Assembly: GCA_963796285.1 (NCBI GenBank)
Contig: CAWCKW010000009.1
Location: 1-17,744 of the forward strand
Direction of reading: 5' to 3'
From: Nitrospirota bacterium
GTDB lineage: Bacteria > Nitrospirota > UBA9217
DNA: 17,744 bases
In this document: positions 1-17,744 of the stretch, in pieces
Layout of the letters: each line of letters opens with the position of its first letter
Numbering within the stretch: position 1 is the first letter of the stretch
Program-made: the position numbers and the translations under genes
Notes under the pieces: model-generated
Database searches by the model: none
What the model was told of the DNA's origin: nothing
What the model saw: only the letters and a program-made list of their open reading frames with translations

Positions 1-2055
1 ACTACTCACGGCAGGTCCGAATACCGGCAATGCAGCTGACATATCTTTCGCGATGTCATCGAAAGATTGCCATGTTGTCGATTTTCCGATCGTGGCAAGT
101 ATATCACGGATCCACTTCCAGCTTTCCTGAATGTCATGGTTCGGTTTGAATACCTGATAGAACCGCTGTGCCCGGCCTTCATTGTTCATCAGAGTTCCCT
201 GGGCTTCCGCAAAAGTAGCAGCGGGCAGGGTGACATCCGCTCTTGACGATGTCGGATTGACCAAGGAGTCGAGAACGATGAGGTTTTTTGCATGACCCAA
301 GGCTTCATCGACGATCTTTGCATCAGCCCTGCGAAAAAGGTCATTTTCAAGGATGATCATCGTATCGGCCTGACCGTCCCGGATGGATTTGAATGCCTCA
401 TCCAGGTTCTTACCCTTCATGAGGGCGAGTCCCATGGTATTACATTCCAGGACCGTGTAACAGAGGCCGGCCTGCTTCCCAATCGAGCAAAGGGCCCATG
501 CAATATTGGCGGCAGCCTCAATGATCGCCTGGCTCATGCATCCGGTGCCGCTCACGACAACGGGACGCTTTGCACTCTTGAGCGCCGCGGCTATTTCCCT
601 TGCTAGCGCTCTGACATCGGGTGATTGGTCTGGAACCGCGGGAACATGCTGATCCAATTCATTTGCCACCGCAATACCGAGCCCTGCGATGTCGGCGGCC
701 GAAGCCTGGTAGGTTTTTGTTGCAACATCATCCAACTTCGACTTTGAACCGGACGCTATGTAGATCGGTGTTTCTGAATTCTGTCCCGCGTTCCTGACCG
801 CATTATCGTCCCAGCCGGGGATCTTCATAGCTGCCGCTGTCTCGCGTTGCTTGTTCTGAGCTGACTGACGGATCGAGAGCGCGAGCATCGGGGCTGTGTT
901 GGTCACATCTTCACCGAGAACAAAAACCGCATCCGCAGACTCGATCTCATGCAGGGAAGGCGTGCGAGCAGGACCTTTTTGAAGAATGTCTACGATAGAC
1001 CCCATGAGCGTGTGTTCCTGGCCGGACAGGCCTGAGCAGAAGTTGTCAGGACCGACAAGGGTGCGAAGGGCAAAGTTCGATTCAAGCGACGCACGGGGCG
1101 ATCCGATGCCGATCATGACTTTGTTTTGGGACAGCATCTTCTTGATCCTGCTGATCGCTGCGGTCTTGTCCGCAGGTGCCTGGCCTTCCTGTGTTGTTGC
1201 TTTAAGCAGCGCTTTTCTGATTCTGCGCCCGCTGTTCACGAATTCATATCCAAACCTGCCGCGGTCGCAGAGGAAATAACCGTTGATCTCATAATTGTAG
1301 CGGTTCAATATTCTGCGGAGGGTGCCGTACCGTTCACCGGGAATCGTGTTGCAGCCGATGCCGCAATGAACGCAGATCGACGGCGCGGTCTGAAGGTCCC
1401 ATTTTCGAGTAAAGTGCTGTTTGAGCGTTTTATCCGTAAAAACCCCGGTGGGGCAGACTTCGACCAGGTTCCCGCTGAACACGTTTTCGAGCGCGCCCTC
1501 TTCATGCCTGCCGAAATAGACGTTATCATGGGACGCGAATACAGAAAAGTCGCGGCCACCCGCATAATTACGATAGAACCTGACACAGCGATAGCATTGG
1601 ATGCACCGGTTCATTTCATGATTGATGAAAGGGCCGAGGTCCTGGTTCCGTTGAGTGCGTTTTTTGAACCGCGTCCGCCGGTAAGTATGGCCGGTCATGA
1701 CCGTCATGTCCTGAAGGTGACATTCGCCGCCCTCGTCGCAGACCGGACAATCATGGGGATGGTTCAACATGAGCCATTCGATCACGCTCGACCTGAAGGC
1801 CCGAGCATCGGCATCGTCAATAGATAATCGCATTCCCTCGGCAACCGGTGTCATGCAGGACATGGTGATCCTGCCGCGCGTATCCTTGTCATCCTTGAAC
1901 AGTTTGACAGCGCATTGACGGCATGCGCCCACAGAGTGCAGGGCAGGGTGCCAGCAGAAGTAGGGGAGATCGAACCCCAGCGAGAGGCAGGCCTGGAGGA
2001 GGTTCTGGCCTTCTTTGACTTGATGGGGTTTATTGTCTATATATATCGTAAGCAT
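1..2055 (-). CDS. nuoG: NADH-quinone oxidoreductase subunit G (partial; runs off the left edge)
   Basis: Not in the ORF track. Manual translation from ATG at 2055 gives MLTIYIDNKPHQVKEGQNLLQACLSLGFDLPYFCWHPALHSVGACRQC..., with a later motif ICVHCGIGCNTIPGERYG...YFLCDRGRFGY (N7 cluster type). Directly follows nuoF. Confidence 0.96.
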   Translation of the reverse strand, partial: MLTIYIDNKPHQVKEGQNLLQACLSLGFDLPYFCWHPALHSVGACRQCAVKLFKDDKDTRGRITMSCMTPVAEGMRLSIDDADARAFRSSVIEWLMLNHPHDCPVCDEGGECHLQDMTVMTGHTYRRTRFKKRTQRNQDLGPFINHEMNRCIQCYRCVRFYRNYAGGRDFSVFASHDNVYFGRHEEGALENVFSGNLVEVCPTGVFTDKTLKQHFTRKWDLQTAPSICVHCGIGCNTIPGERYGTLRRILNRYNYEINGYFLCDRGRFGYEFVNSGRRIRKALLKATTQEGQAPADKTAAISRIKKMLSQNKVMIGIGSPRASLESNFALRTLVGPDNFCSGLSGQEHTLMGSIVDILQKGPARTPSLHEIESADAVFVLGEDVTNTAPMLALSIRQSAQNKQRETAAAMKIPGWDDNAVRNAGQNSETPIYIASGSKSKLDDVATKTYQASAADIAGLGIAVANELDQHVPAVPDQSPDVRALAREIAAALKSAKRPVVVSGTGCMSQAIIEAAANIAWALCSIGKQAGLCYTVLECNTMGLALMKGKNLDEAFKSIRDGQADTMIILENDLFRRADAKIVDEALGHAKNLIVLDSLVNPTSSRADVTLPAATFAEAQGTLMNNEGRAQRFYQVFKPNHDIQESWKWIRDILATIGKSTTWQSFDDIAKDMSAALPVFGPAVSS

Positions 2056-2077
2056 ATTTTCTCTGATTGCTGATCAT

Positions 2078-3349
2078 CTAGTGCCATGGGCATTTCTTAT
2101 CCTGTATGTGTTTCGCAAAGTCTTCGCGGAAGTATTTGAGCGCGCTTTGGAGCGGCTCAACGGCGCCTGGCGCAAGAGCGCAGTAGGTATTGCCGGGACC
2201 GAGCAGCCTGCATTGCTGCGCCAGCAGATCGATGTCGCCTGGCTCTCCCCCTCCGGTCTCGATCGCATGGAGAATCTTCTCTATCCACGGGAGGCCTTCG
2301 CGGCAGGGCGTGCACCAGCCGCAGGATTCCCGTCTGAAAAAGACTTCAAGGTTGTGGACAAACCCGACAGGGCAGGTCTTGTCGTCGAGCACGATCATGG
2401 TGCCGGTGCCCATGCGGCTGCCGGCTTTCATGACCGAGTCGAAGTCCATCTTGATATCCAGATGTTCTGCAACCAGAAAGTCGGTTGAAGCACCTCCGGG
2501 GATCAAGCCGCGGAACTGATAGCCGTCCAGCATGCCGCCTGCGTGCTCCTCAAGCAGCTCCCGGATGGTCATGCCCATGGGCAGTTCCCATGCCCCGGGC
2601 TTCCTTACCCTGCCGCTGACACCGTACAACTTGGTCCCGCCGTCAGGGCTTGAGCTCAAACCCTTGAACCAATCAGGTCCGTTGTTCACGATATGAGGTA
2701 TGTTCGCGATAGTTTCCGCATTGTTCACGATCGTGGGTCTGCCGAAGAGGCCGCAGACCTGGGGGAAGGGCGGCTTCGCTCTCGGCGTGGCACGTTTCCC
2801 TTCAAGGGCGTTCAAAAGCGCGGTCTCCTCGCCGCAGATATAGCGGCCCGCACTCGCATGGATGCGGAGGTCGAGATTGAAGCCAGAGCCGAGGATATTC
2901 GTGCCGAGATAGTTGTGCTCATAAGCTTCGGCAATGGCCGCTTCAAGCCGATGCGCCGCCAGTTTGTATGCCCAGCGGATGAAGATGAATGCCTGCTGCG
3001 CTTCAATGGCATAGGCGCTGGTGATCACACCCTCGATGATCTGGTGGGGGTCGCCTTCAAGCAACATCCGGTCCTTGAATGTTCCCGGCTCCATCTCGTC
3101 GGCATTCACGACCAGATATTTAGGGCGCGGCGCGTCCTTTCCCATGGGAACGAAGCTCCACTTTGCGCCCGTAGGAAAACCAGCTCCTCCGCGGCCGCGC
3201 AAATTCGATGCCTTGACGATGTTCTGGACGTCCTGCGGAGACATCGCAAGCGCTTTGCGCACAGACTGGTAGCCGCCGGTTTTCTCATAGTCTTTCAGAG
3301 AAAGCGGCTCCTGGCCAGCGCGTATGTTTTTTGTGAGTGGTCGTTCCAT
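2078..3349 (-). CDS. nuoF: NADH-quinone oxidoreductase subunit F
   Basis: Motifs LRGRGGAGFPTG, NADEMEPGTFKDR, GRYICGEETALLNALEG and ESCGWCTPCREG...C (FMN/NADH site, N3 cluster). Confidence 0.98.
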   Translation of the reverse strand: MERPLTKNIRAGQEPLSLKDYEKTGGYQSVRKALAMSPQDVQNIVKASNLRGRGGAGFPTGAKWSFVPMGKDAPRPKYLVVNADEMEPGTFKDRMLLEGDPHQIIEGVITSAYAIEAQQAFIFIRWAYKLAAHRLEAAIAEAYEHNYLGTNILGSGFNLDLRIHASAGRYICGEETALLNALEGKRATPRAKPPFPQVCGLFGRPTIVNNAETIANIPHIVNNGPDWFKGLSSSPDGGTKLYGVSGRVRKPGAWELPMGMTIRELLEEHAGGMLDGYQFRGLIPGGASTDFLVAEHLDIKMDFDSVMKAGSRMGTGTMIVLDDKTCPVGFVHNLEVFFRRESCGWCTPCREGLPWIEKILHAIETGGGEPGDIDLLAQQCRLLGPGNTYCALAPGAVEPLQSALKYFREDFAKHIQDKKCPWH

Positions 3350-3362
3350 GGTATTTATTTGA

Positions 3363-3827
3363 CTATGGGTAATTCTCCAGGATCTTTTCCATCATCTCCG
3401 GGGTCACGGGCCCGTACAAGTCCTCACCAACCATCATGGCCGGTGCGCGGTCGCAGGCGCCGAGGCAGGAGACGGGGAGGAGTGTGAAACGCTCGTCCTC
3501 TGTCGTTTCTCCGAATCGAATGCCGTGGGTCGTCTTCAGAAGTTGCAACAGCGGATTGTAGCCCATGACCCAGCAACTGATGCTGTCACATATCAGGATC
3601 ACGTGCCTGCCCACTGGCTTCCGAAAAATAAAACTGTAAAATGTCGCAACTGCATCCAACTCATCGGGCGTCATCTCGAGCATTCGCGCAACTTCCTTGA
3701 GGCTCTCATCCGATACCCAGCCTTGGTGGCGCTGTACGATGTTCAGCGCTTCAATTGAAGCTGACTGCTTCGTCACGCAGTGTGCCAGTTCAACGTTGAT
3801 TTTCTGTATTTCGATTTCGCTCAGCAT
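3363..3827 (-). CDS. nuoE: NADH-quinone oxidoreductase subunit E
   Basis: VATFY, CDSISC and CLGACDRAP 2Fe-2S motifs. SD AGGAGGT lies 8 nt upstream. Confidence 0.97.
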   Translation of the reverse strand: MLSEIEIQKINVELAHCVTKQSASIEALNIVQRHQGWVSDESLKEVARMLEMTPDELDAVATFYSFIFRKPVGRHVILICDSISCWVMGYNPLLQLLKTTHGIRFGETTEDERFTLLPVSCLGACDRAPAMMVGEDLYGPVTPEMMEKILENYP

Positions 3828-3833
3828 TTCAAT

Positions 3834-4226
3834 TTACCTCCTCTCCCCGAGGGGAGAGGATAGAGGTGAGGGGGTGTGTTGTCTTTGTTCTATTGCTCTC
3901 AAAATTGCTTCGTATATTCCTTCTTTGTTTAGCAATATATCCCTATTGTTGAATCTGATAATATGTATGCCCCGCGCTGACAGCGCCTTTTCTCTCTCTG
4001 CGTCATGCGTCGCGCCCTTATTTTCATAATGCTGGCCGCCGTCTGCTTCAATGGCAATTTGCAATTCAGGTGCATAGAAGTCCAGGATGTATTTGTCGAT
4101 AGAAAACTGTCGTCTGAATTTAATACGAGCCAATCGTCGATCGCGTAAGAGCGACCAAAGATTTCTTTCCGCGTCAGTTTGATTTCTGCGAAGTTCTCTG
4201 CTTCTCGGTATATTGGGTCGTTTCAA
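3834..4226 (-). CDS. DUF559 / Vsr-like PD-(D/E)XK endonuclease domain protein
   Basis: RELRRNQTDAERNLW...KFRRQ...ILDFY...IEADGGQH...D..R...L...G..IIRF is the DUF559 signature. TTG start. Visibly AT-richer than the flanking nuo genes. Confidence 0.9.
   Translation of the reverse strand: MKRPNIPRSRELRRNQTDAERNLWSLLRDRRLARIKFRRQFSIDKYILDFYAPELQIAIEADGGQHYENKGATHDAEREKALSARGIHIIRFNNRDILLNKEGIYEAILRAIEQRQHTPSPLSSPLGERR
3838..3874. repeat. REP-like GC-rich palindromic repeat, left copy
   Basis: Reverse complement reads CCCCCTCACCTCTATCCTCTCCCCTCGGGGAGAGGAG, with an internal hairpin. It is an inverted, imperfect copy of 4230-4268. Confidence 0.85.
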
Positions 4227-4229
4227 CTT

Positions 4230-4268
4230 CCCCCCTCACCCCAGCCCTCTCCCCACAGGGAGAGGGAG
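4230..4268. repeat. REP-like GC-rich palindromic repeat, right copy
   Basis: CCCCCCTCACCCCAGCCCTCTCCCCACAGGGAGAGGGAG, with hairpin CCCTCTCCC-CACA-GGGAGAGGG. Confidence 0.85.
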
Positions 4269-4276
4269 AATTCTAA

Positions 4277-6025
4277 TCATCTATCCAAATCCGCCAGAAT
4301 AAAATCAATGCTCCCGATGATCGCCACAAGGTCGGCGATCATCAGCCCCTTGCTGATCTTCGGCACCATCTGCATATGGGCAAACGAAGGGGTCCTGATG
4401 CGGGTACGGTAGGACATGGTATTGCCGTCGCTGATGAGATAATACCCGTTGTTCCCCTTGGTCGCCTCGATGCCCATGAACGCCTCGCCGGCAGGTATCA
4501 CCGGTCCCCAACTGACGCCGAGGAAGTGGTTGATGAGCGTCTCGATGTCATGCATGGTGCGTTCCTTGCGGGGCGGCGTCGTGAGTGGATGGTCCGATTT
4601 GTATCCGCCTTCAGGCATGTTGTTCACGCACTGTTCGATAATGCGCAGGCTCTGTCGTATTTCCTCGACGCGCACGACCCCGCGGTCGTAGCAGTCGCCA
4701 TGGGTTGCCGTGGGGATATCGAACTCGAAGTTCTCATAGCCGGAATACGGCCGCTTCTTTCTAAAGTCCCAATCGAATCCGCAGGCGCGGAGACCGGGAC
4801 CGGTCACTCCCCAGTCGATGGCCTCGACCTTGGTATAGATGCCGACACCCTTGGTGCGGGCCTTGAATATCCTGTTCCGCATCACGATCGTGTCGTATTC
4901 CTTGAGCCGGGGAGGCAGGTATTTGAGAAAGTCGCGCACGAGCCTGTCCCATCCCTTCGGCAGGTCCATGGCCACGCCGCCGATCCGGAACCACGCAGGA
5001 TGCATGCGTCCGCCGCAGATCGCCTCGACGATATCGAAGATACGCTCGCGGTCCGTGAACATATAGAACACCGGCGACAGCGCGCCCACGTCCTGGGCAA
5101 AGGTGCCGTACCAGACGAGATGGCTCGCGATGCGGAAGAGCTCGGCCATCATCACGCGGATGGTCTTTGCCCGGTCAGGCACCTCGATGCCCGCGAGCTT
5201 TTCGACCGCAAGGCAGTAAGCCATATTGTTCATAACGCCGCCAAGGTAGTCGACGCGGTCGGTGTAGGGGATGTAGGTGTGCCAGGACTGGCGTTCGGCC
5301 ATCTTTTCAGCGCCGCGGTGGTGATAGCCGATGTCGAGCACGGCGTCGGCGATCTCCTCGCCATCGAGCTGTAGGACGATGCGTAACAGTCCATGGGTGC
5401 CGGGGTGCTGTGGCCCGAGGTTCAGGAACATGAAGTCCGAGTCTTCAGAAACGCGTTTCAATCCCCAATCTTCGGGTCTGAACTTGAGCGCGGCCTGCTC
5501 TTTTTCTTCTTTTTCATCAGACAGCTCGAACGGGCCCATCTCGGTGGCCCGCGCAGGGTGGTCCTTGCGAAGGGGATGGCCGTTCCAGGTCGGAGGCATC
5601 AGGATCCTTTTCAAGTGCGGGTGGCCGTCGAACGTTATCCCGAAGAGGTCCCAAACCTCGCGCTCGTACCAATTGGCTGACTGCCAGAGGTTGGTGATAG
5701 TGGGGAGTGAAAGAGATCCATTCGTGAGCGGCACCTTGATGCGGATATCCTCATTCCGGTCAAAGGAAAGGAGATGATATACGACCGTGAATTCACTCGC
5801 CGGCTGGTCCTGACGATGATTGCGAACGCGCTCATCGATGGCCGTAAGGTCATAAAGCATCTTATAGGGATGATCGACACCTGTTTTAAGATGTCTCAAA
5901 ACATCGTTGACCTTGTCGTGTGACACCCAGAGTGTGGGGATCTCATCGCGCGTGGTCTGTTCGGCGAGAATGGAGTCGCCGAAGGTTGTTTTGAGTTCAG
6001 TGATGATGGGGTTGTTTGGCGTCAT
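4277..6025 (-). CDS. nuoCD: NADH-quinone oxidoreductase fused subunit C/D
   Basis: NuoC part ([16 protein letters not shown]...GHPLRKD) is fused to a NuoD part ([29 protein letters not shown]-terminal DFILADLDR). 582 aa. Confidence 0.97.
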
Positions 6026-6034
6026 AAGTGAAGG

Positions 6035-6090
6035 CTAAATGTTAAATTACAAAGCTCAGAGTTTAGAGGAATGTCAAAACGTCAATGTTT
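6035..6090. repeat. Degenerate heptamer-periodic repeat tract
   Basis: CTAAATGTTAAATTACAAAGCTCAGAGTTTAGAGGAATGTCAAAACGTCAA resembles the tract at 6963-7020. Confidence 0.5.
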
Positions 6091-6335
6091 AATTTGATTA
6101 TTTTGAGTTGTATATAATGACATATTACGCCATCGCCGGACATGATCCGCATCTCCGAAGGCAAGGTATTTGTGAAAAGACTGACTCCTCCACCTCAGGA
6201 AGCACAAACTATGAAGATAATCAAAATAGGCATGATGCAAAGAGATCCAAGAAATTAGTTGCTTTTCCCCGGTACGTATGAATCAATAAGAATACTTCAA
6301 GATAATGTTGAAATCATAAGGGTATTCCTCTGCTT

Positions 6336-6950
6336 TCAAACTTCATCGGGCGATCTCAGGACCGTGGCCTTTTGCCGCTCTTCCCGTTTCAGGTCCCGCA
6401 TGCACGGTTTCTCCGGCCGCACGATGTCCTGCGGCCCGGCGATCCAGCTCAAGGGCCTGCGTTCTTTGCCGACCTGCTCACGCAGCATCAGCAGGCCTTC
6501 CATAAAGGCCTCGGGCCGGGGAGGACAACCGGGCACGTACACGTCAACGGGCATGAACTTGTCCACGCCCTGGACCACGCTGTAGATGTCGTACATGCCG
6601 CCGGAGTTGGCGCAGGAACCCATGGAGATGACCCATCGCGGCGCCATCATCTGTTCATAGAGCCGCTTGATGATCGGCGCCACCTTGATGAACACCGTAC
6701 CGGCAACGATCATCATGTCCGCCTCTCGCGGCGTTCCGCGGATCACCTCCGCGCCGAAGCGCGCAATATCGTACTTGCTCGTCAGACTCGTGGCCATTTC
6801 AACATAGCAACAGGAGAGGCCGAAGTTGAACGGCCAGATGGAGTTCTTCCTCCCCCAGGCGAGCATGTCCTGCATCGTCGTGAGGATCACGCTTTGGCGC
6901 ATCGCGTCTTCCGCGGAACCGCGGTCAGGTCTGGTTAAAGAATAGTTCAT
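6336..6950 (-). CDS. nuoB: NADH-quinone oxidoreductase subunit B
   Basis: [20 protein letters not shown] and [14 protein letters not shown] (N2 cluster). ATG at 6950 with upstream AAAGG is preferred to the TTG at 6971. Confidence 0.96.
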
Positions 6951-6962
6951 GAAGCCTTTCGG

Positions 6963-7085
6963 AAAGTTCAAATGTCAAAATTCAAAGTTCAAATCAATCC
7001 TTAACCAAAAAAATTCAAATTTCACGCTTGTTGTTTTTTTTATTTCGAACGTTGATCTTTGAACTTTGAAATTGATTTTGCAAAT
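6963..7085. repeat. Inverted pair of heptamer-repeat tracts between nuoA and nuoB
   Basis: AAAGTTC AAATGTC AAAATTC AAAGTTC AAATC (from 6963) faces TTTCGAACGTTGATCTTTGAACTTTGAAATTGATTTTG (7043-7080). Confidence 0.7.
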
Positions 7086-7633: not shown

Positions 7634-8980
7634 CTATTTTGCGGTTGTACCGCCATACCGCTCATTGTAGAACTTCTGGATCTTTTCAAGCTGCTCTTTG
7701 GTCATGCCCTTGGTATACCACTCGTGCCTGACATCGGTCTCGAGGTATTTTTTCACGATCTCGCTATAGAGTTCCGGACCGGCAACGTTCTTTACCTCGG
7801 GCAGGAATTCGGTATAGAAGTTCTTGGCCACATCATAGATACCATGCCACCACGCATAATCGGGGCCGGACATGGCCGCGCCGTGCCTTGCTCTTCTGCC
7901 TTCATGGTGCCACAGCTCCCAGTATATCCAGTCCAGCTTGTCGTCGAAATTCGCCTTTGTAAGCTTGCCCTTGTCCATCAGTTCCTGCCTGATCGCGGTC
8001 GCGGGTTTTGCGAATTTGTCGTCATAGAGATTGACAAGATTGTCGAACTGTTTATAGAACCCTTCCACGAACGGCGTTGAATGGCAGCTGTTACAGACGT
8101 TCTGCATGGCAGCGCGCTTTTTATCCGCGTTCTCCATCTTCTTCGAAATGGGCGGCCGAAGCGTCCAACTGATCCGGGCGCCTACGTCATGGGTCACTGC
8201 CTGGGTCGGCGTGGCGCTCATATGGCAGGTGGCGCAGGTGGGGGCGGCGGAATAATCCTGTCCAACGACCCACTTGTCCTTGTGCATGTTCATCCGTTCC
8301 TTGTTGGCCTCGTAAAGGATCCCGTGCTTTGATTCCTGATATACTTCCATCTGCGGATGGTCAGGGCCGAGATGGCATTTACCGCAGGTCTGGGGTTCTC
8401 GTGCCTGCGCTTTTGAGAAACTGTGGCGCGCATGGCAGGCCGAGCAGGATCCCTTGGAGCCATCGGGATTTATTCGGCCGATGCCCGTGTTTGGCCAGCT
8501 GTTGGTATCGAGCTTACCATTTGCAAGGACCTTGACAATGCCGCCATGGCACTGCAGACAGCCGACCGCAACGGCCTCCTGTCCACCCACGACCTCGCCG
8601 AGATAGTTGTCCGCGGAATTGAGGATGTCCCCGGCTTTGGCATGGTGGCTCTCGGTCATCTCCTTTTCTTCCTTAGCGTGGCATTTGCCGCAGTCTTTGG
8701 GAGTGACGAGGATCGCGATCGTATATCCATTGTGCTCCATGGCATCAGGATCGGACTTCTCCGCCTTGTGGCAGGTGTAGCAGTCTACGCCTTTTGCCGC
8801 GTGAGTACTCAGTTTCCATTCCGTGACAAAGGCTGGTGACTGTGCCTCGTGGCAACCTATGCAGGCCTGACCTTCTTTTGATACTTTTAGCTTTGCCGCT
8901 TCTCCCGACCCGGCATGGAACGTCATGGCCATGCTCAGCACCGCTGATAGAACAATGATCGATACCTGTTTCCTTTCCAT
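7634..8980 (-). CDS. Periplasmic octaheme cytochrome c, hydroxylamine oxidoreductase (HAO) family
   Basis: Signal peptide. Eight CxxCH motifs (CIGCH, CYTCH, CGKCH, CLQCH, CSACH, CGKCH, CATCH, CNSCH). HAO-type motifs CHLGPDHPQ.E.Y..SKHG, APTCATCHM and ELWHHEGRRAR...PDYAWWHG. SD AAGGAGG. Confidence 0.92.
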   Translation of the reverse strand: MERKQVSIIVLSAVLSMAMTFHAGSGEAAKLKVSKEGQACIGCHEAQSPAFVTEWKLSTHAAKGVDCYTCHKAEKSDPDAMEHNGYTIAILVTPKDCGKCHAKEEKEMTESHHAKAGDILNSADNYLGEVVGGQEAVAVGCLQCHGGIVKVLANGKLDTNSWPNTGIGRINPDGSKGSCSACHARHSFSKAQAREPQTCGKCHLGPDHPQMEVYQESKHGILYEANKERMNMHKDKWVVGQDYSAAPTCATCHMSATPTQAVTHDVGARISWTLRPPISKKMENADKKRAAMQNVCNSCHSTPFVEGFYKQFDNLVNLYDDKFAKPATAIRQELMDKGKLTKANFDDKLDWIYWELWHHEGRRARHGAAMSGPDYAWWHGIYDVAKNFYTEFLPEVKNVAGPELYSEIVKKYLETDVRHEWYTKGMTKEQLEKIQKFYNERYGGTTAK

Positions 8981-10169: not shown

Positions 10170-10246
10170 CGGGGCGTGGCGCAGCCTGGTAGCGTACTCG
10201 CTTGGGGTGCGAGTGGTCGGCCGTTCAAATCGGCTCGCCCCGACCA
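10170..10246 (+). tRNA. tRNA-Pro(GGG)
   Basis: CGGGGCG acceptor stem, D arm GCGCAGCCTGGTAGCGT, anticodon stem CTCGC/GCGAG with loop TTGGGGT (GGG at 10204-10206), T loop GTTCAAAT, encoded CCA end. 77 nt. Confidence 0.97.
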
Positions 10247-13719: not shown

Positions 13720-15461
13720 ATGAAATTACACAAGAAGACGCATAACTGCGGCGAGCTTGCAAAAAAAGACGTCGGCGCGGTCGTGACGCTCATGGGCTGG
13801 GTGCATACGAGAAGGGACCACGGCGGGCTCATCTTCATCGACCTTCGCGATCGCGGAGGCATCACGCAGGTGGTCTTCAATCCCGTGACGGCAGCGGATG
13901 CACACGCGCGTGCGCATGACGTCAGGAGCGAGTATGTGCTCGCCGTCACCGGCACGATCTCGCTGCGGCCGGAAAGTACCGTGAACACGAAGCTTCCTAC
14001 CGGAGAGATCGAAGTGGTGGCGAGCGACCTGGTGATATTGAACGAATCAAAGGCACTGCCGTTCATGATCGAGGACGAGACAGCCGTGGCCGAGAACCTC
14101 AGGCTGAAGTACCGTTACCTCGACCTGCGCCGGCCGAGCCTCCAGAGCGTCTTTATCGCCCGGCATCTGATCACGCAGACCGTGCGGCGCTTTCTCGACA
14201 ACAGCGGCTTCATCGATATTGAAACGCCTTTTCTGACCAAGAGCACGCCTGAAGGCGCGAGGGACTTCATTATCCCGAGCAGGGTCAACCACGGGATGTT
14301 CTACGCCCTGCCGCAGTCACCCCAGCTCTTCAAGCAGATACTCATGGTGGCCGGATTCGACGTATTTCCAAATAGCACGATGCTTCAGGGACGAGGATCT
14401 CAGGGCGGACCGTCAGCCCGAGTTTACTCAAATCGATCTCGAAATGAGCTTTGTAGACGTGGAAGATGTCATCGAGGTGATGAAGGCATCGTGAAGCTTT
14501 GAACGTCAATGAAGAGGCTCGATGATTGCGGTTCCTTTCAACGGATGGACTCATCATGCGTTGCCATGGAACGGTACGGCACGGACAAACCGGACTCCGT
14601 TTCGATCTCGCCTTTAAGGATGACCCCTGCTTTGAAGGGACGGAATTCGGGTATGTCTGCAGGTCGTAGAATCGGGAGGTCGGTGAGGGGTGTATTAAGG
14701 GCCGGTCAGGGGAAGCTCTCGAGGAAGGAAGTGGATACCGCAGTGGAGACGGCAAAGATCTTCGGCGCGAAGGGCCTAATCTGGATCAAGTGACGAAGAA
14801 GGCTTGTCTCGCCCATTGTCAAGTTCTTAAAGGAGGGCAGTAAAAGCCATTGACCGGAGCTCTCGACCAATCCCGGCGACGTCATGTGTTCATTGGCGAG
14901 AGTCCGAAGAAGGTTAATGAGACTCTCGGGTATGTTCGGCTGCTCATGGGGAAAAGGATGAACCTCATCGCCGGGACCAACTAACTTTCTCTGGGTGCCT
15001 GATTTTCCGTTGTTCGAGTAGAACGCAGAAGAGAAGCGATACGGCGCCATCACCATCCGTTCACCTCGCCAAGGGAAGAAGACTGAATTCATGGCGACCG
15101 ATTCGCTTCAGGGCCAAGGCCTATGACATCGTGCTCAACGGCGCGGAGATAGGCGGAGGAAGCATCCGGATCCACAGATCGAGGAGCCGATGGAGATGTT
15201 CAGGCTCCTCAACATTGCAGAAGAAGAGGCGACGGAAAAGTTCGGGTTCCTACTCGAAGCCCTCGAGATCGGCGCTCCGCCCCACGGCGGGATCGCCTTT
15301 GGTCTTGACCGGCTCAGGCGATCCTGGGGCGTGAGAGCATAAGAGACGTAATAGCGTTCCCCAAGACGCAGAAGGCCATCTGTCTCATGACCGAGGCGCC
15401 GTCGCGAGTCTCCGCTGCTCAGCTCCGGGAGCTGTCGATCAAGCTGGATATTGTGGAGTAG
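13720..15461 (+). CDS. aspS: Aspartate--tRNA ligase, multiply frameshifted in this sequence
   Basis: Intact N-terminus ([34 protein letters not shown]). Then, in shifting frames: [86 protein letters not shown], ending [13 protein letters not shown] at 15461. Confidence 0.93.
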
Positions 15462-15475
15462 ATGCGAAACCCTTT

Positions 15476-15542
15476 GCCATGGAGACACGGAGAGAAAATG
15501 ACTAGCGGCATGATTTTCTCCGTGCCTCAGTGCCTCCGTGGC
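15476..15542. repeat. Inverted-repeat element of CACGGAG-type units after aspS
   Basis: GCCATGGAGACACGGAGAGAAAAT ... ATTTTCTCCGTGCCTCAGTGCCTCCGTGGC. Related to 12793-12959. Confidence 0.7.
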
Positions 15543-15566
15543 TGCAATTAAGATGTTGAGGTTTCT

Positions 15567-15734
15567 ATGAAATGCAAGTCCTGCGGCAGGGAAGTCGAAC
15601 TCCGGATCGGCTGACGCGCCATCACCTTTCGCTGCACGGCGTGCGGCAAGGATTTTTCGATCAAGGAGTATGCGGACCAGATCGATGAGGAGATGTGGGA
15701 GAAGATCTCCCGCCGCCCCTGCAACCGCGCGTGA
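15567..15734 (+). CDS. Small dual-CxxC selenoprotein (55 aa, Sec at codon 16)
   Basis: MKCKSCGREVELRIG-U-RAITFRCTACGKDFSIKEYADQIDEEMWEKISRRPCNRA. SD GAGG 5 nt before ATG, in-frame TGA at 15612-15614, SECIS-like hairpin downstream, close to selD. Confidence 0.85.
15625..15651 (+). promoter_or_regulatory. Putative bacterial SECIS element of the small selenoprotein
   Basis: CCTT-tc-GCTGCAC-GGC-GTGCGGC-AAGG. Starts 10 nt after the UGA, has a bulged U and a G-initiated apical loop 23 nt from the UGA. Confidence 0.7.
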
Positions 15735-15815
15735 AGCCTGGTTTTCACCAATGAGTCGTATTTCTCCACTTCCCACCCATTCTTTTTTCCAGCTTAATTC
15801 AGCAGGCTCGGCTGT

Positions 15816-15864
15816 ATGTCAAATTAATTTTATGTTGACATTTACATAAAAACATAGTAATACT
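15816..15864 (+). promoter_or_regulatory. AT-rich promoter/operator of arsR-selD-tauE
   Basis: Perfect TTGACA at 15835-15840, overlapped by inverted repeats TTTTATGT-N8-ACATAAAA (15828-15851) and ATGTCAA-N12-TTGACAT. The -10 box is ambiguous (TAATAC at 17 nt). Confidence 0.55.
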
Positions 15865-15891
15865 TGCATATATTATTTGGAGGTGCCCTTT

Positions 15892-16233
15892 ATGATTCCC
15901 CCTGAGAAGCGCATTGAACTGCTCAAAGTCATCGCCCACCCCATACGGATAAGGATCCTCGAAGATCTCACGCAGGGGGTGAAGTGCGTGAGCGACTTCG
16001 AAGAAACCCTCGACATCAGCCAGCCGAACGTATCCCAGCACTTGACCCTCCTTCGCACCCACGGCATCGTCGATTACTTTGTCGACGGCAGGCTCAAATG
16101 CTACTTTCTCAAAGAACCCCTGATCCCCGATCTGCTTGAACTCCTGAAAAAAGAGTACGACGAAGATATTCCCGCGCCGGCATGCTGCCCCGTGACAAAA
16201 AAGGGGACCTATCCCGGAGGGAGAAGGCGATAG
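15892..16233 (+). CDS. ArsR/SmtB-family transcriptional regulator
   Basis: LKVIAHPIRIRIL...KCVSDF...ISQPNVSQHLTLLRTHGIV helix-turn-helix. ATG at 15892 with SD GGAGGT. C-terminal PACCP. Confidence 0.93.
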   Translation: MIPPEKRIELLKVIAHPIRIRILEDLTQGVKCVSDFEETLDISQPNVSQHLTLLRTHGIVDYFVDGRLKCYFLKEPLIPDLLELLKKEYDEDIPAPACCPVTKKGTYPGGRRR

Positions 16234-16263
16234 AGACGGTAAAAATGGAGAAGGAGGGGGACC

Positions 16264-17311
16264 ATGGAAATAAAACTTACACAACTTTCCAGCTGCGCCG
16301 GTTGAGCGGCAAAATTCAGCCCTGCTGAACTGTCCCAGGTCCTGGGACAATTGCCGAAGATCACCGATCCGAACGTGCTGGTCGGCGCTTCGAATGCCGA
16401 CGATGCCGGCGTTTACCGCATTACGGACGACATCGCCATGGTCCTGACCGCGGATTTTTTCACGCCCGATCGTGGATGATCCCTACTGGTTCGGTGCGAT
16501 CGCTGCTGCCAACTCGCTTTCCGACGTCTACGCCATGGGCGGCAAACCCCTGGTCGCTCTGAACATCGCTGCGCTTCCCGCCGGGCGCGGATTTTTACGA
16601 GATCAACAAAAAGATCATGCAGGGCGGCATCGACAAGATGACCGAGGCCGGGGTGTTCATCATCGGCGGCCATACGGTCAAGGACAAGGAGCCGAAATTC
16701 GGGTATGCCGTCATGGGATCGATTCATCCCGAGAAAATACTCGATAATGCAAAAGCGCAGCCGGGGGACGCCCTGATACTCACGAAACAGATCGGCACGG
16801 GCGTGATATCCACCGGGATAAAAGCCGGGAAATGCAGCGCGGCGACTGCCGAAGCGTTCACCAAATCCATGGCCATGCTGAACAAACGGGCCGGCGAGAT
16901 CATGCTCGAGGTCGGCGTCAGCACGGCAACGGACATCACGGGCTTCGGCCTGATCGGACATCTGAACGAGGTGCTGACGGCGAGCAAACGCACGGCGCGT
17001 CTCCACGCACGCCAGGTCCCTGTCTTCGAAGAAGCGATAACGATCACGGAGATGGGCATGGTCCCGGGCGGAACAAGGGCGAATCAGAAAAGCTATGATC
17101 CCTTTGTGGAGTGGGGCGCCGACGTTTCAGCGACCGACCGGGTCCTGATGAACGATGCCCAAACCTCGGGCGGCCTCCTGATATTCGTGCCAAAGGACAA
17201 AAAGGAGCGGCTTATCTCGGCGCTGCAGAAGGAGAACATCCTGGCAGCGCATATCGGCGATGTGTTCGAGGGAGAGGCAGGGACGCGAAGCGGATCTTCG
17301 TGGAGCAATAG
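16264..17311 (+). CDS. selD: Selenide, water dikinase (selenophosphate synthetase), Sec-containing, with apparent indel errors
   Basis: [20 protein letters not shown] (TGA at 16303-16305), [60 protein letters not shown]. Extra bases near 16466 and 16578 and a shift near 17275 that restores ...KRIFVEQ-TAG at 17311. Confidence 0.95.
16331..16349 (+). promoter_or_regulatory. Putative SECIS element of selD
   Basis: Perfect 8-bp stem TGTCCCAG-GTC-CTGGGACA with a G-initiated loop 33 nt after the UGA. A second small hairpin TTCAGC-CCT-GCTGAA lies at 16315-16329. Confidence 0.65.
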
Positions 17312-17312
17312 C

Positions 17313-17744
17313 ATGGACGCCGCCTTGTATCTGTTCCTGGCCCTGGTCGGCGCTGTCCGTCGGGTTTCTCTCGGGCCTGCTCGGCATCGGCGGCGGAATC
17401 GTCATGTTCCCGCTGTTGCTCTACGTGCCTCCGCTTTTGGGTCTCGGCGGCATCGATGTCAAGAGCATCACCGGGCTCACGATGGTCCAGGGTTTTTTTT
17501 CCGCGCTTACGGCGATGTTCTACTACCACAAAAATGCGCTCGTGAACAAATCGCTCGTACTGACGCTCGGTCTTTCGCTGTTCCTGTCATCGCTGCGGGT
17601 TCGCTGGTGTCGAAGAGGGTGCCGACGGGCCTCTGCTGATGGTCTTCGGGACCTTGGCGTTGATCGCGTCGATCATGATGCTCATCCCGCGCAGTTACGC
17701 CAGGACGAGCTGACCGAGGAATACGAATTTCCACAGGACCACCG
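17313..17744 (+). CDS. TauE/SafE (DUF81) family membrane transporter (partial, frameshifted in this sequence)
   Basis: ATG 1 nt after the selD stop. MDAALYLFLALVGAV, then after a +1 shift near 17357 VGFLSGLLGIGGGIVMFPLLLYVPPLLG..., the G..G.GGG N-terminal signature of TauE. Runs off the window. Confidence 0.85.

Follow-up and report, generated by a model that had tools for sequence, protein, structure and literature searches.

In bacteria, an internal UGA is read as selenocysteine (Sec) by SelB and Sec-tRNA with a selenocysteine insertion sequence (SECIS) downstream of the codon. The present analysis concerns a 55-codon gene with such a UGA in a Nitrospirota bacterium (lineage UBA9217; assembly GCA_963796285.1); it is located on contig CAWCKW010000009.1, whose 17,744 nucleotides were analysed in full and are referred to as the window. 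The protein family to which the gene belongs was described by Zhang and Gladyshev in 2007 from the Olavius symbiont metagenome as OS_HP3 (Olavius symbiont hypothetical protein 3): two TGA-containing genes with predicted SECIS were documented, no Cys homologues were known according to Table 2 of that report, and its text offers no functional proposal (PMC1976440). OS_HP3 corresponds to NF041197 and is listed with one Sec in Table 1 of a selenoproteome review of 2026 (PMC13188914); a methods paper of 2025 states that its predictor overlooked the family in Desulfosarcina widdelii (PMC12013277).

The window gene is an ordinary member of this catalogued family and a genuine selenoprotein gene; we assign a probability of about 0.9 to its identity as an NF041197 member together with SelB/SECIS-dependent decoding of UGA-16 as Sec. 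The family, its Sec and its SECIS are already in print and the classification is left unchanged; added here are the extent of the family in Nitrospirota, a quantitative demonstration that the codons of the second zinc knuckle themselves form the SECIS, the incidental nature of the selD adjacency and the clade-limited aspS synteny, and the observation that most copies in public protein sets are truncated stumps.

The window protein is built like other members of NF041197/OS_HP3: its motifs follow the CxxC-x9-U/C-x6-CxxC layout, its length falls within the family range of about 55-75 residues, an acidic helix precedes a [D/N]-R-hydrophobic C-terminus, and the SECIS lies immediately behind the UGA; nothing essential differs. 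It represents the short Nitrospirota form (55 amino acids (aa), no N-terminal extension, W44, ending RPCNRA), whereas the metagenome-derived forms and the named Maridesulfovibrio protein have approximately 15 extra N-terminal residues and VPMDRL-like ends. Other metal-associated or redox selenoproteins listed in the 2026 review (for example the YHS-domain GxU, UxxU metal-binding and HesB-like proteins; PMC13188914) are likewise small, occur in sulfate-reducer-like anaerobes and show the Sec/Cys pair; like the window family, they are predicted by genomics only, with roles unknown or metal-linked. They differ in fold and motif: the Sec of the window protein is not part of a UxxC/CxxU pair and has no conserved resolving Cys. 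The family is among the most compact selenoproteins and, having just one invariant Sec/Cys position and a simple scaffold, would be a convenient model for the preference of Sec over Cys.

Conservation of the internal UGA codon

Read-through of the in-frame TGA yields a product that starts with M-K-C-K-S-C and shows the arrangement C3xxC6-x9-U16-x6-C23xxC26, followed by an acidic stretch (residues 37-45) and the C-terminal PCNRA (see Table 1 for the coordinates). An earlier sequence-only reading of the window had pointed to the two CxxC motifs around the TGA, the acidic segment, a C-terminal PCNR and a GAGG Shine-Dalgarno sequence, and had noted that the small open reading frame (ORF) was absent from the ORF track: all of these protein features are seen in the read-through translation, the GAGG is present, and the list of ORFs, compiled from 60 aa upwards, has no entry for the gene. 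The family that this reading named, the "dual CXXC motif small (seleno)protein", proved to be the correct one. The read-through protein matched NF041197 with 65.7 bits (E 3e-18; profile positions 1-52 of 53; curated cut-off 40 bits), and a six-frame scan of the genome with this profile retrieved the small gene with 55.2 bits and one TGA. In Pfam there was no model for the 55-aa protein; zinc-ribbon matches were sub-threshold only.

The window is the entire contig C9 of a 3.58-Mb assembly of 13 contigs (96.2% complete, 5.04% contaminated). C9, C8 and C1:85555-103375 are three diverged copies of one 17-kb locus that are 80-99% identical in pieces and probably represent strain variants binned together, which fits the contamination value. 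The small gene and its TGA are kept in all three copies (3/3); when the copies are aligned, conservation is much stronger in the coding region than in the flanks, and the GAGG is invariant although the adjoining sequences diverge. In C9, aspS and selD each extend over several reading frames, as does aspS in the C1 copy, while the small ORF is in frame; the splits are likely indel errors of the long-read assembly rather than pseudogenes, because relatives have intact aspS and selD genes.

Of the 401 Nitrospirota genomes sampled, 158 have an NF041197 match above the cut-off, nearly all of them in the Sec form: exactly one TGA was present in 146/150 among the matches listed, and the remaining four carried TGT or TGC at the aligned codon. 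Exactly one TGA was also present in each of the 24 over-cut-off matches (24/24) from 41 relatives, and the ORF was found in 42 of 44 named Nitrospirota loci, with the TGA in all of them (42/42). Contigs from two unrelated metagenomes bridge positions 15612-15614 with no other letter (X1 records 1-2, X2 record 13); being 88-99% alike, these short-read contigs stem from relatives and not from this strain. Protein conservation and reading frame continue across the TGA.

In a distant branch represented by 16 metagenome loci, which were found with a four-sequence alignment as query, the codon is TGA in 6 and a Cys codon in 10. The central column of 38 aligned members contains C in 37 cases (one being the U of the query, written as C) and W in one. 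An exhaustive profile search yielded 136 proteins at E <=0.001, of which 42 were fetched; the 22 fetched proteins scanned with NF041197 matched without exception (22/22), 21 of them over the cut-off. Many Cys-form members are present in current collections, unlike the situation in 2007. At the sequence level, the alternation of TGA and Cys codons at position 16 is the classic Sec/Cys signature. An ESM Atlas search with a natural Cys-form relative returned the own family only, with Thermodesulfobacteriota as the commonest recorded phylum; in the phylum of a weak Clostridia match (L073), the family was found in 0 of 301 genomes searched.

A W at the central column occurs in the records P0002, P0036 and P0105, and P0002 also has W at the terminal TGA; judged by this placement, at the terminal TGA or at the very same column, the W records are evidently TGA codons mistranslated as Trp in the manner of a code-4-type table. 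Two doubts that had been raised beforehand could be checked. Homologues carried TGA or a Cys codon at position 16, and Trp, Arg or Gly never occurred there as a real residue; the possibility of a miscalled TGA was countered by the recurrence of the codon in the listed matches and in the independent metagenome contigs. In a collection of 5.8 billion proteins, 28 of 32 relatives are pieces of 31-38 aa that start after the UGA, and two more are also post-UGA: the gene is systematically lost or truncated at its internal UGA by ordinary gene callers, and a few copies are mistranslated with Trp.

The SECIS hairpin and the decoding of UGA-16

Behind the UGA, a core bacterial SECIS hairpin is formed by a 7-bp stem (15631-15637/15641-15647) and a 3-nt loop (GGC, 15638-15640) with G as first loop nucleotide; the spacing is 16 nt from UGA to stem and 23 nt from UGA to loop. 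The bacterial consensus quoted in the 2026 review places G within the first two positions of the loop, commonly with G or U after it, and a distance of 16-37 nt from the UGA to the loop (PMC13188914). The window hairpin agrees with it on both counts, and the loops of the relatives have G first and then mostly G or U. In the minimum free energy (MFE) structure of the window sequence, the hairpin is extended by a lower stem CCUU/AAGG (15625-15628/15648-15651) with an unpaired UC between the two stems; the lower stem starts 10 nt past the TGA and is not kept in most relatives, whereas the core is kept. The earlier description of a hairpin that starts 10 nt after the TGA and bears an apical G therefore stands, except that its single bulged U is in fact the unpaired UC and that the lower stem is not conserved.

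The stem is encoded by codons 22-27 (R-C-T-x-C-G), i.e. by the second CxxC zinc knuckle; the SECIS is built from knuckle codons, so that the RNA structure and the knuckle share the same 17 nt. Since the folding energy of the 69 nt behind the UGA does not stand out from that of shuffled sequences (z 0.79), support for the hairpin rests on its conservation. Codon usage, counted in 46 unique Sec-form genes, was nearly frozen within the stem: R22 is encoded by CGC (43/43), C23 by TGC (46/46), T24 by ACG (45/45), A25 by GCG (18/18), C26 by TGC (46/46) and G27 by GGC (43/45). Outside the stem, the equally conserved R50 uses six codons, R54 five, and the Thr residues at 18, 20 and 43 four each; the TGC:TGT ratios are 43:3 for C3, 40:6 for C6 and 28:5 for C52. 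Over 1035 pairs of these genes, the mean pairwise synonymous difference (pS) is 0.045 in codons 22-27 versus 0.672 elsewhere, a 15-fold drop; outside the SECIS codons, the corresponding nonsynonymous value (pN) of 0.228 versus the pS of 0.672 reveals purifying selection on the protein. In distant Sec forms a hairpin occupies the equivalent position; in Cys forms, which employ TGT and other codons, there is none. According to these sequence comparisons, codons 22-27 are evidently under RNA-level selection, and the overlap of SECIS and zinc-knuckle codons, quantified here, clearly illustrates dual coding. Since the SECIS is the knuckle coding sequence, a switch from Sec to Cys would release the knuckle codons from the RNA-level constraint. 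The scan of the window with Rfam at gathering scores gave a tRNA at 10170-10243 as sole match.

The genome encodes the full Sec machinery, as the sequence-only reading had asked to be checked: selA (C12:143175-144557, 595 bits) and selB (C12:140804-142690, 370 bits) are both above cut-off, and a well-formed tRNA-Sec (selC; C12:134660-134754, 64 bits; Rfam gathering score 47) lies 6 kb from selB. The selD gene of the window has an in-frame TGA of its own (16303-16305) in the N-terminal glycine-rich motif: SelD is itself a selenoprotein here. Ordinary ORF calling starts selD too late, past this in-frame TGA. Because selA, selB, selC and selD are present and the hairpin is conserved, standard SelB/SECIS recoding is the preferred interpretation: UGA-16 would be translated as Sec by SelB with Sec-tRNA, directed by the hairpin 16 nt downstream, and the second TGA would terminate synthesis of a zinc-ribbon-like protein of approximately 6 kDa.

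It is very improbable that UGA-16 is instead read as Trp, Cys or Ser by a suppressor or allo-tRNA with the anticodon UCA. Two extra tRNA-like sequences with this anticodon, whose anticodon and T arms are identical, do occur in the genome (C12:1201224-1201314, 53.3 bits; C3:325140-325231, 44.2 bits), and some public records show W, as mentioned above; however, the acceptor stems of both tRNA-like sequences contain mismatches and their variable region is unpaired, the W records are mistranslations, and the only natural alternative residue is Cys. Moreover, TGA ends the gene in 34 of the 46 unique Sec forms and thus serves as a stop codon in these genomes, and the conserved SECIS and the complete selABCD set argue for SelB-dependent decoding. 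The view that the TGA arose through faulty sequencing or assembly, or that it is a genuine stop, would leave a 15-codon ORF with an untranslated remainder or a pseudogene and is hardly tenable: the contig does contain indel errors (the frame splits of aspS and selD) and public gene calls mostly comprise the post-TGA part, but a substitution error cannot recur in nearly all listed matches or in independent metagenomes, and the continuity of frame and protein conservation, the Cys-codon replacement and the frozen SECIS codons stand against it.

Table 1. Coordinates of the small selenoprotein gene, its SECIS hairpin and further genes (window positions unless a locus is given).
Feature	Position	Strand	Basis or remark
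55-codon gene, dual-CXXC small selenoprotein (NF041197/OS_HP3)	15567..15734	+	read-through translation, profile match; ATG at 15567, terminal TGA at 15732-15734, 40 codons after the in-frame TGA
Sec codon UGA (codon 16)	15612..15614	+	conservation in relatives
Shine-Dalgarno GAGG	15558..15561	+	5 nt 5' of ATG
Core bacterial SECIS hairpin (7-bp stem, 3-nt loop)	15631..15647	+	conservation
Extended hairpin (lower stem CCUU/AAGG, unpaired UC)	15625..15651	+	MFE structure
aspS (aspartate--tRNA ligase)	13720..15461	+	directly upstream; broken over frames
ArsR/SmtB-family regulator	15892..16233	+	next gene downstream; weak BigR-like match
selD (selenide, water dikinase)	16264..17290	+	frameshifted in contig
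TauE/SafE-like permease	17260..17742	+	tblastn of intact C1 copy; runs off contig
CxxCxxCC protein	L096:2909-3502	-	
CxxCxxCC protein	L098:3738-4271		
CxxCxxCC protein	L102:3663-4235		
CxxCxxCC protein	L103:2882-3463	-	
CxxCxxCC protein	L106:3659-4279		

Predicted fold and possible action of the selenol

The AlphaFold2 model calculated with 49 aligned sequences (mean predicted local distance difference test score, pLDDT, of 76.9) comprises three strands (residues 9-14, 19-23, 29-31) and two helices (32-35, 41-48); residue 16 is placed in the turn (G15-U16-R17) of the main beta-hairpin, at the far end from the knuckles. A zinc-ribbon-like fold with an exposed Sec at the hairpin turn is therefore predicted, and the earlier proposal of a zinc-ribbon scaffold that displays the Sec agrees with the model. 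The best structural neighbours are zinc ribbons, i.e. the Rpb9/RPC10-type and topoisomerase I ribbons and the small protein ZifS (top Foldseek row; a literature search for ZifS gave no relevant match among the entries listed). By sequence, no relative was found in the PDB; only generic CxxCGK knuckle matches to C2H2 fingers were obtained. As modelled, the window protein would have in common with the Rpb9/RPC10/TFIIS-type and topoisomerase I ribbons the two CxxC knuckles, the three-stranded sheet and a conserved functional residue in the turn of the main hairpin; the TFIIS-type ribbons present a functional hairpin tip. In contrast to these, it carries Sec/Cys instead of acidic residues at the tip, is free-standing and not a polymerase subunit, and shows no sequence relationship.

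The CxxC and central Sec/Cys columns are invariant in the 49 aligned members and nearly so in 38 distant ones. The residues invariant across the family are the four knuckle Cys, the central Sec/Cys, R50 and R54, with W44 added in the Nitrospirota branch; within the C-terminal NRA, N53 is nearly invariant. Since S, I or A takes the place of C52 in 13 of the 46 unique sequences, C52 is not an obligatory resolving Cys. A search for longer or fused forms retrieved one unrelated C2H2 protein only. In the protein P0136 (216 aa, cluster of 4), the small domain is C-terminal and the N-terminal 150 residues have no Pfam match; this could reflect a genuine fusion or, equally, a gene call that ran on.

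In the model, one metal ion would be bound between the pair of CxxC knuckles, and the hairpin of strands 9-14 and 19-23 would display the selenol in its turn, away from the knuckles; the acidic helix and the conserved [D/N]-R-hydrophobic C-terminus would follow. As a tentative proposal with somewhat less than even odds, the protein could be a metal-stabilised ribbon handle whose exposed selenol acts on a partner protein, either by exchange of redox equivalents via a selenenylsulfide or by binding and handing over a soft metal or chalcogen; the way in which TFIIS-type ribbons present their tip would be comparable. The proposal relies on four points: the tip is the sole residue that alternates between Sec and Cys; conserved basic residues flank it; no second Cys is conserved near the Sec for an intramolecular couple and C52 is replaceable, so that action between molecules is most likely; and the C-terminal end is conserved as if a partner docked onto it. 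In a more specific and distinctly unlikely version, a "selenol finger", the tip of the free-standing ribbon would insert its Sec/Cys into the active or metal site of a partner enzyme, for which synteny offers as candidates a CxxCxxCC/YkgJ-like protein, aminoacyl-tRNA synthetases and the translation apparatus. If true, the tip would represent a novel type of catalytic or repair residue that acts in trans. The two neighbour-based alternatives concerning translation and the CxxCxxCC protein, considered below, are special cases of this same idea.

Neighbouring genes as candidate partners

In 38 of 42 related loci, aspS is the gene immediately upstream and has the same orientation; two of the other four have <400 nt of upstream sequence. 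In other Nitrospirota families, for which 20 regions were collected and 17 yielded the ORF by sequence pattern, aspS was upstream in 0/17 loci; a role of AspS as family-wide partner is ruled out by this result. More broadly, the protein might be linked to translation, where it would assist aminoacyl-tRNA synthetases, tRNA or the ribosome or guard their redox state. Besides aspS, a class II D/K/N-type synthetase gene follows 14 nt downstream of the small gene in L097, tilS lies upstream and gltX 51 nt downstream in L104, rplM-rpsI lies downstream in L111 and L112, and a YacP-like NYN nuclease gene is found two genes downstream in four loci; zinc ribbons are frequent among the small proteins of the ribosome and of translation. 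However, the 38 aspS loci are close kin and amount to approximately one event, housekeeping neighbours are common by chance, and similarity to ribosomal proteins in the PDB does not exceed what chance would give (E 0.26 or worse). Apart from the loci named here and those with the CxxCxxCC gene described below, the other-family loci have unrelated neighbours. In the distant metagenome branch (Pfam scan of 41/69 neighbour ORFs in 11/16 loci), the neighbours are a TolC-like OEP gene upstream (9/11 loci) and an SLT_2 lytic transglycosylase gene downstream (4/11). A link to translation is consequently regarded as unlikely.

A doubtful alternative is that the protein works with a CxxCxxCC (PF03692, YkgJ-like) protein to which it would pass, or from which it would receive, a metal, an Fe-S fragment or reducing equivalents. 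In 5 of the 17 other-family loci, which represent five families, a gene for such a protein of approximately 190 aa directly follows the small gene on the same strand, with gaps that range from an 8-nt overlap to 76 nt; all five match PF03692 (best E 1.9e-05), and their alignment has 41 invariant columns, 23 of which are of Cys/His/Gly type. In L096, L098, L102 and L103, the YacP-like nuclease gene is next after it. The gene is not adjacent in the other 12 of the 17 loci, though, and none was seen among the scanned neighbours of the metagenome loci; in the window genome, the sole relative is a weak and partial one at a different site (26% over 120 aa, C12:523093-523449), and PF03692 is itself without known function.

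The sequence-only reading had taken the proximity of selD, two genes away, as a functional hint, from which a selenium carrier that works with SelD could be derived; its suggestion of a Se carrier or a redox or metal(loid) handler is a conjecture. The adjacency itself is correct: selD begins at 16264 with the ArsR-family gene in between, it is two genes downstream in all three copies of the assembly, and genes of the ArsR, TauE and DsrE types are again seen downstream in a number of close relatives. It is specific to the strain cluster, however: among the 42 related loci, whose downstream genes vary widely (ArsR in 12, TauE by tblastn in 4), selD was inside the fetched flanks in two (L030, L034), tblastn with the window neighbours detected it in 0/17 loci of other families, and no SelD-type domain was present among the 41 scanned ORFs of the metagenome branch. 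Since many members are Cys forms in addition, the carrier function is quite improbable, the partner is probably not SelD, and SelD as partner is unsupported by the locus counts. The selD adjacency is incidental, and the aspS synteny is limited to the family-level clade of the window.

Compared with these alternatives, the metal-stabilised ribbon handle that acts on a partner through its selenol is the more probable, and several points weigh against it and against parts of the decoding argument. The neighbours differ between lineages (aspS, CxxCxxCC plus YacP, aminoacyl-tRNA synthetases, rplM-rpsI, TolC-like OEP/SLT_2) and none is common to them, so that the functional interpretation is weakly grounded and names no partner. 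The structural matches are weak (best Foldseek E in the PDB 0.3; best VIA Z 3.3), and "zinc ribbon" accordingly depends on the motif pattern and a model of medium confidence. The pairs of the SECIS stem never vary, hence there is no compensatory covariation, and the RNA-level argument relies on the frozen synonymous sites and the loss of the hairpin in Cys forms. Given the indel errors in the contig, this copy of the gene could hold undetected errors. Finally, selenium incorporation, metal binding and activity are predictions, here as in the papers cited.

The ArsR-selD-TauE cluster (15800-17742) is located behind an AT-rich spacer. By tblastn, the intact TauE copy of C1 matches TauE-type genes in relatives, and the Pfam TauE domain was detected in L038, L041 and L047. 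At the same spot in relatives (L030, L041, L067, L038, L047), ArsR, TauE and DsrE-like genes occur in varying combinations; the cluster may be a movable module for sulfur and selenium handling. In the spacer between aspS and the small gene, an imperfect inverted repeat (15486-15524) is present that is absent in the C1 and C8 copies, and 15510-15545 is matched by contigs of run X6 that come from unrelated contexts, a hint of a short dispersed repeat. On the minus strand, a 213-codon ORF (15135-15776), antisense to aspS and the small gene, has no family match and is regarded as spurious. At the other end of the window, a nuoB-CD-E-F-G cluster (1-6971, minus strand) adjoins a gene for a multihaem cytochrome (7634-8980, minus strand) that shows a weak hydroxylamine/hydrazine-dehydrogenase-like match (73.9 bits versus a cut-off of 900).

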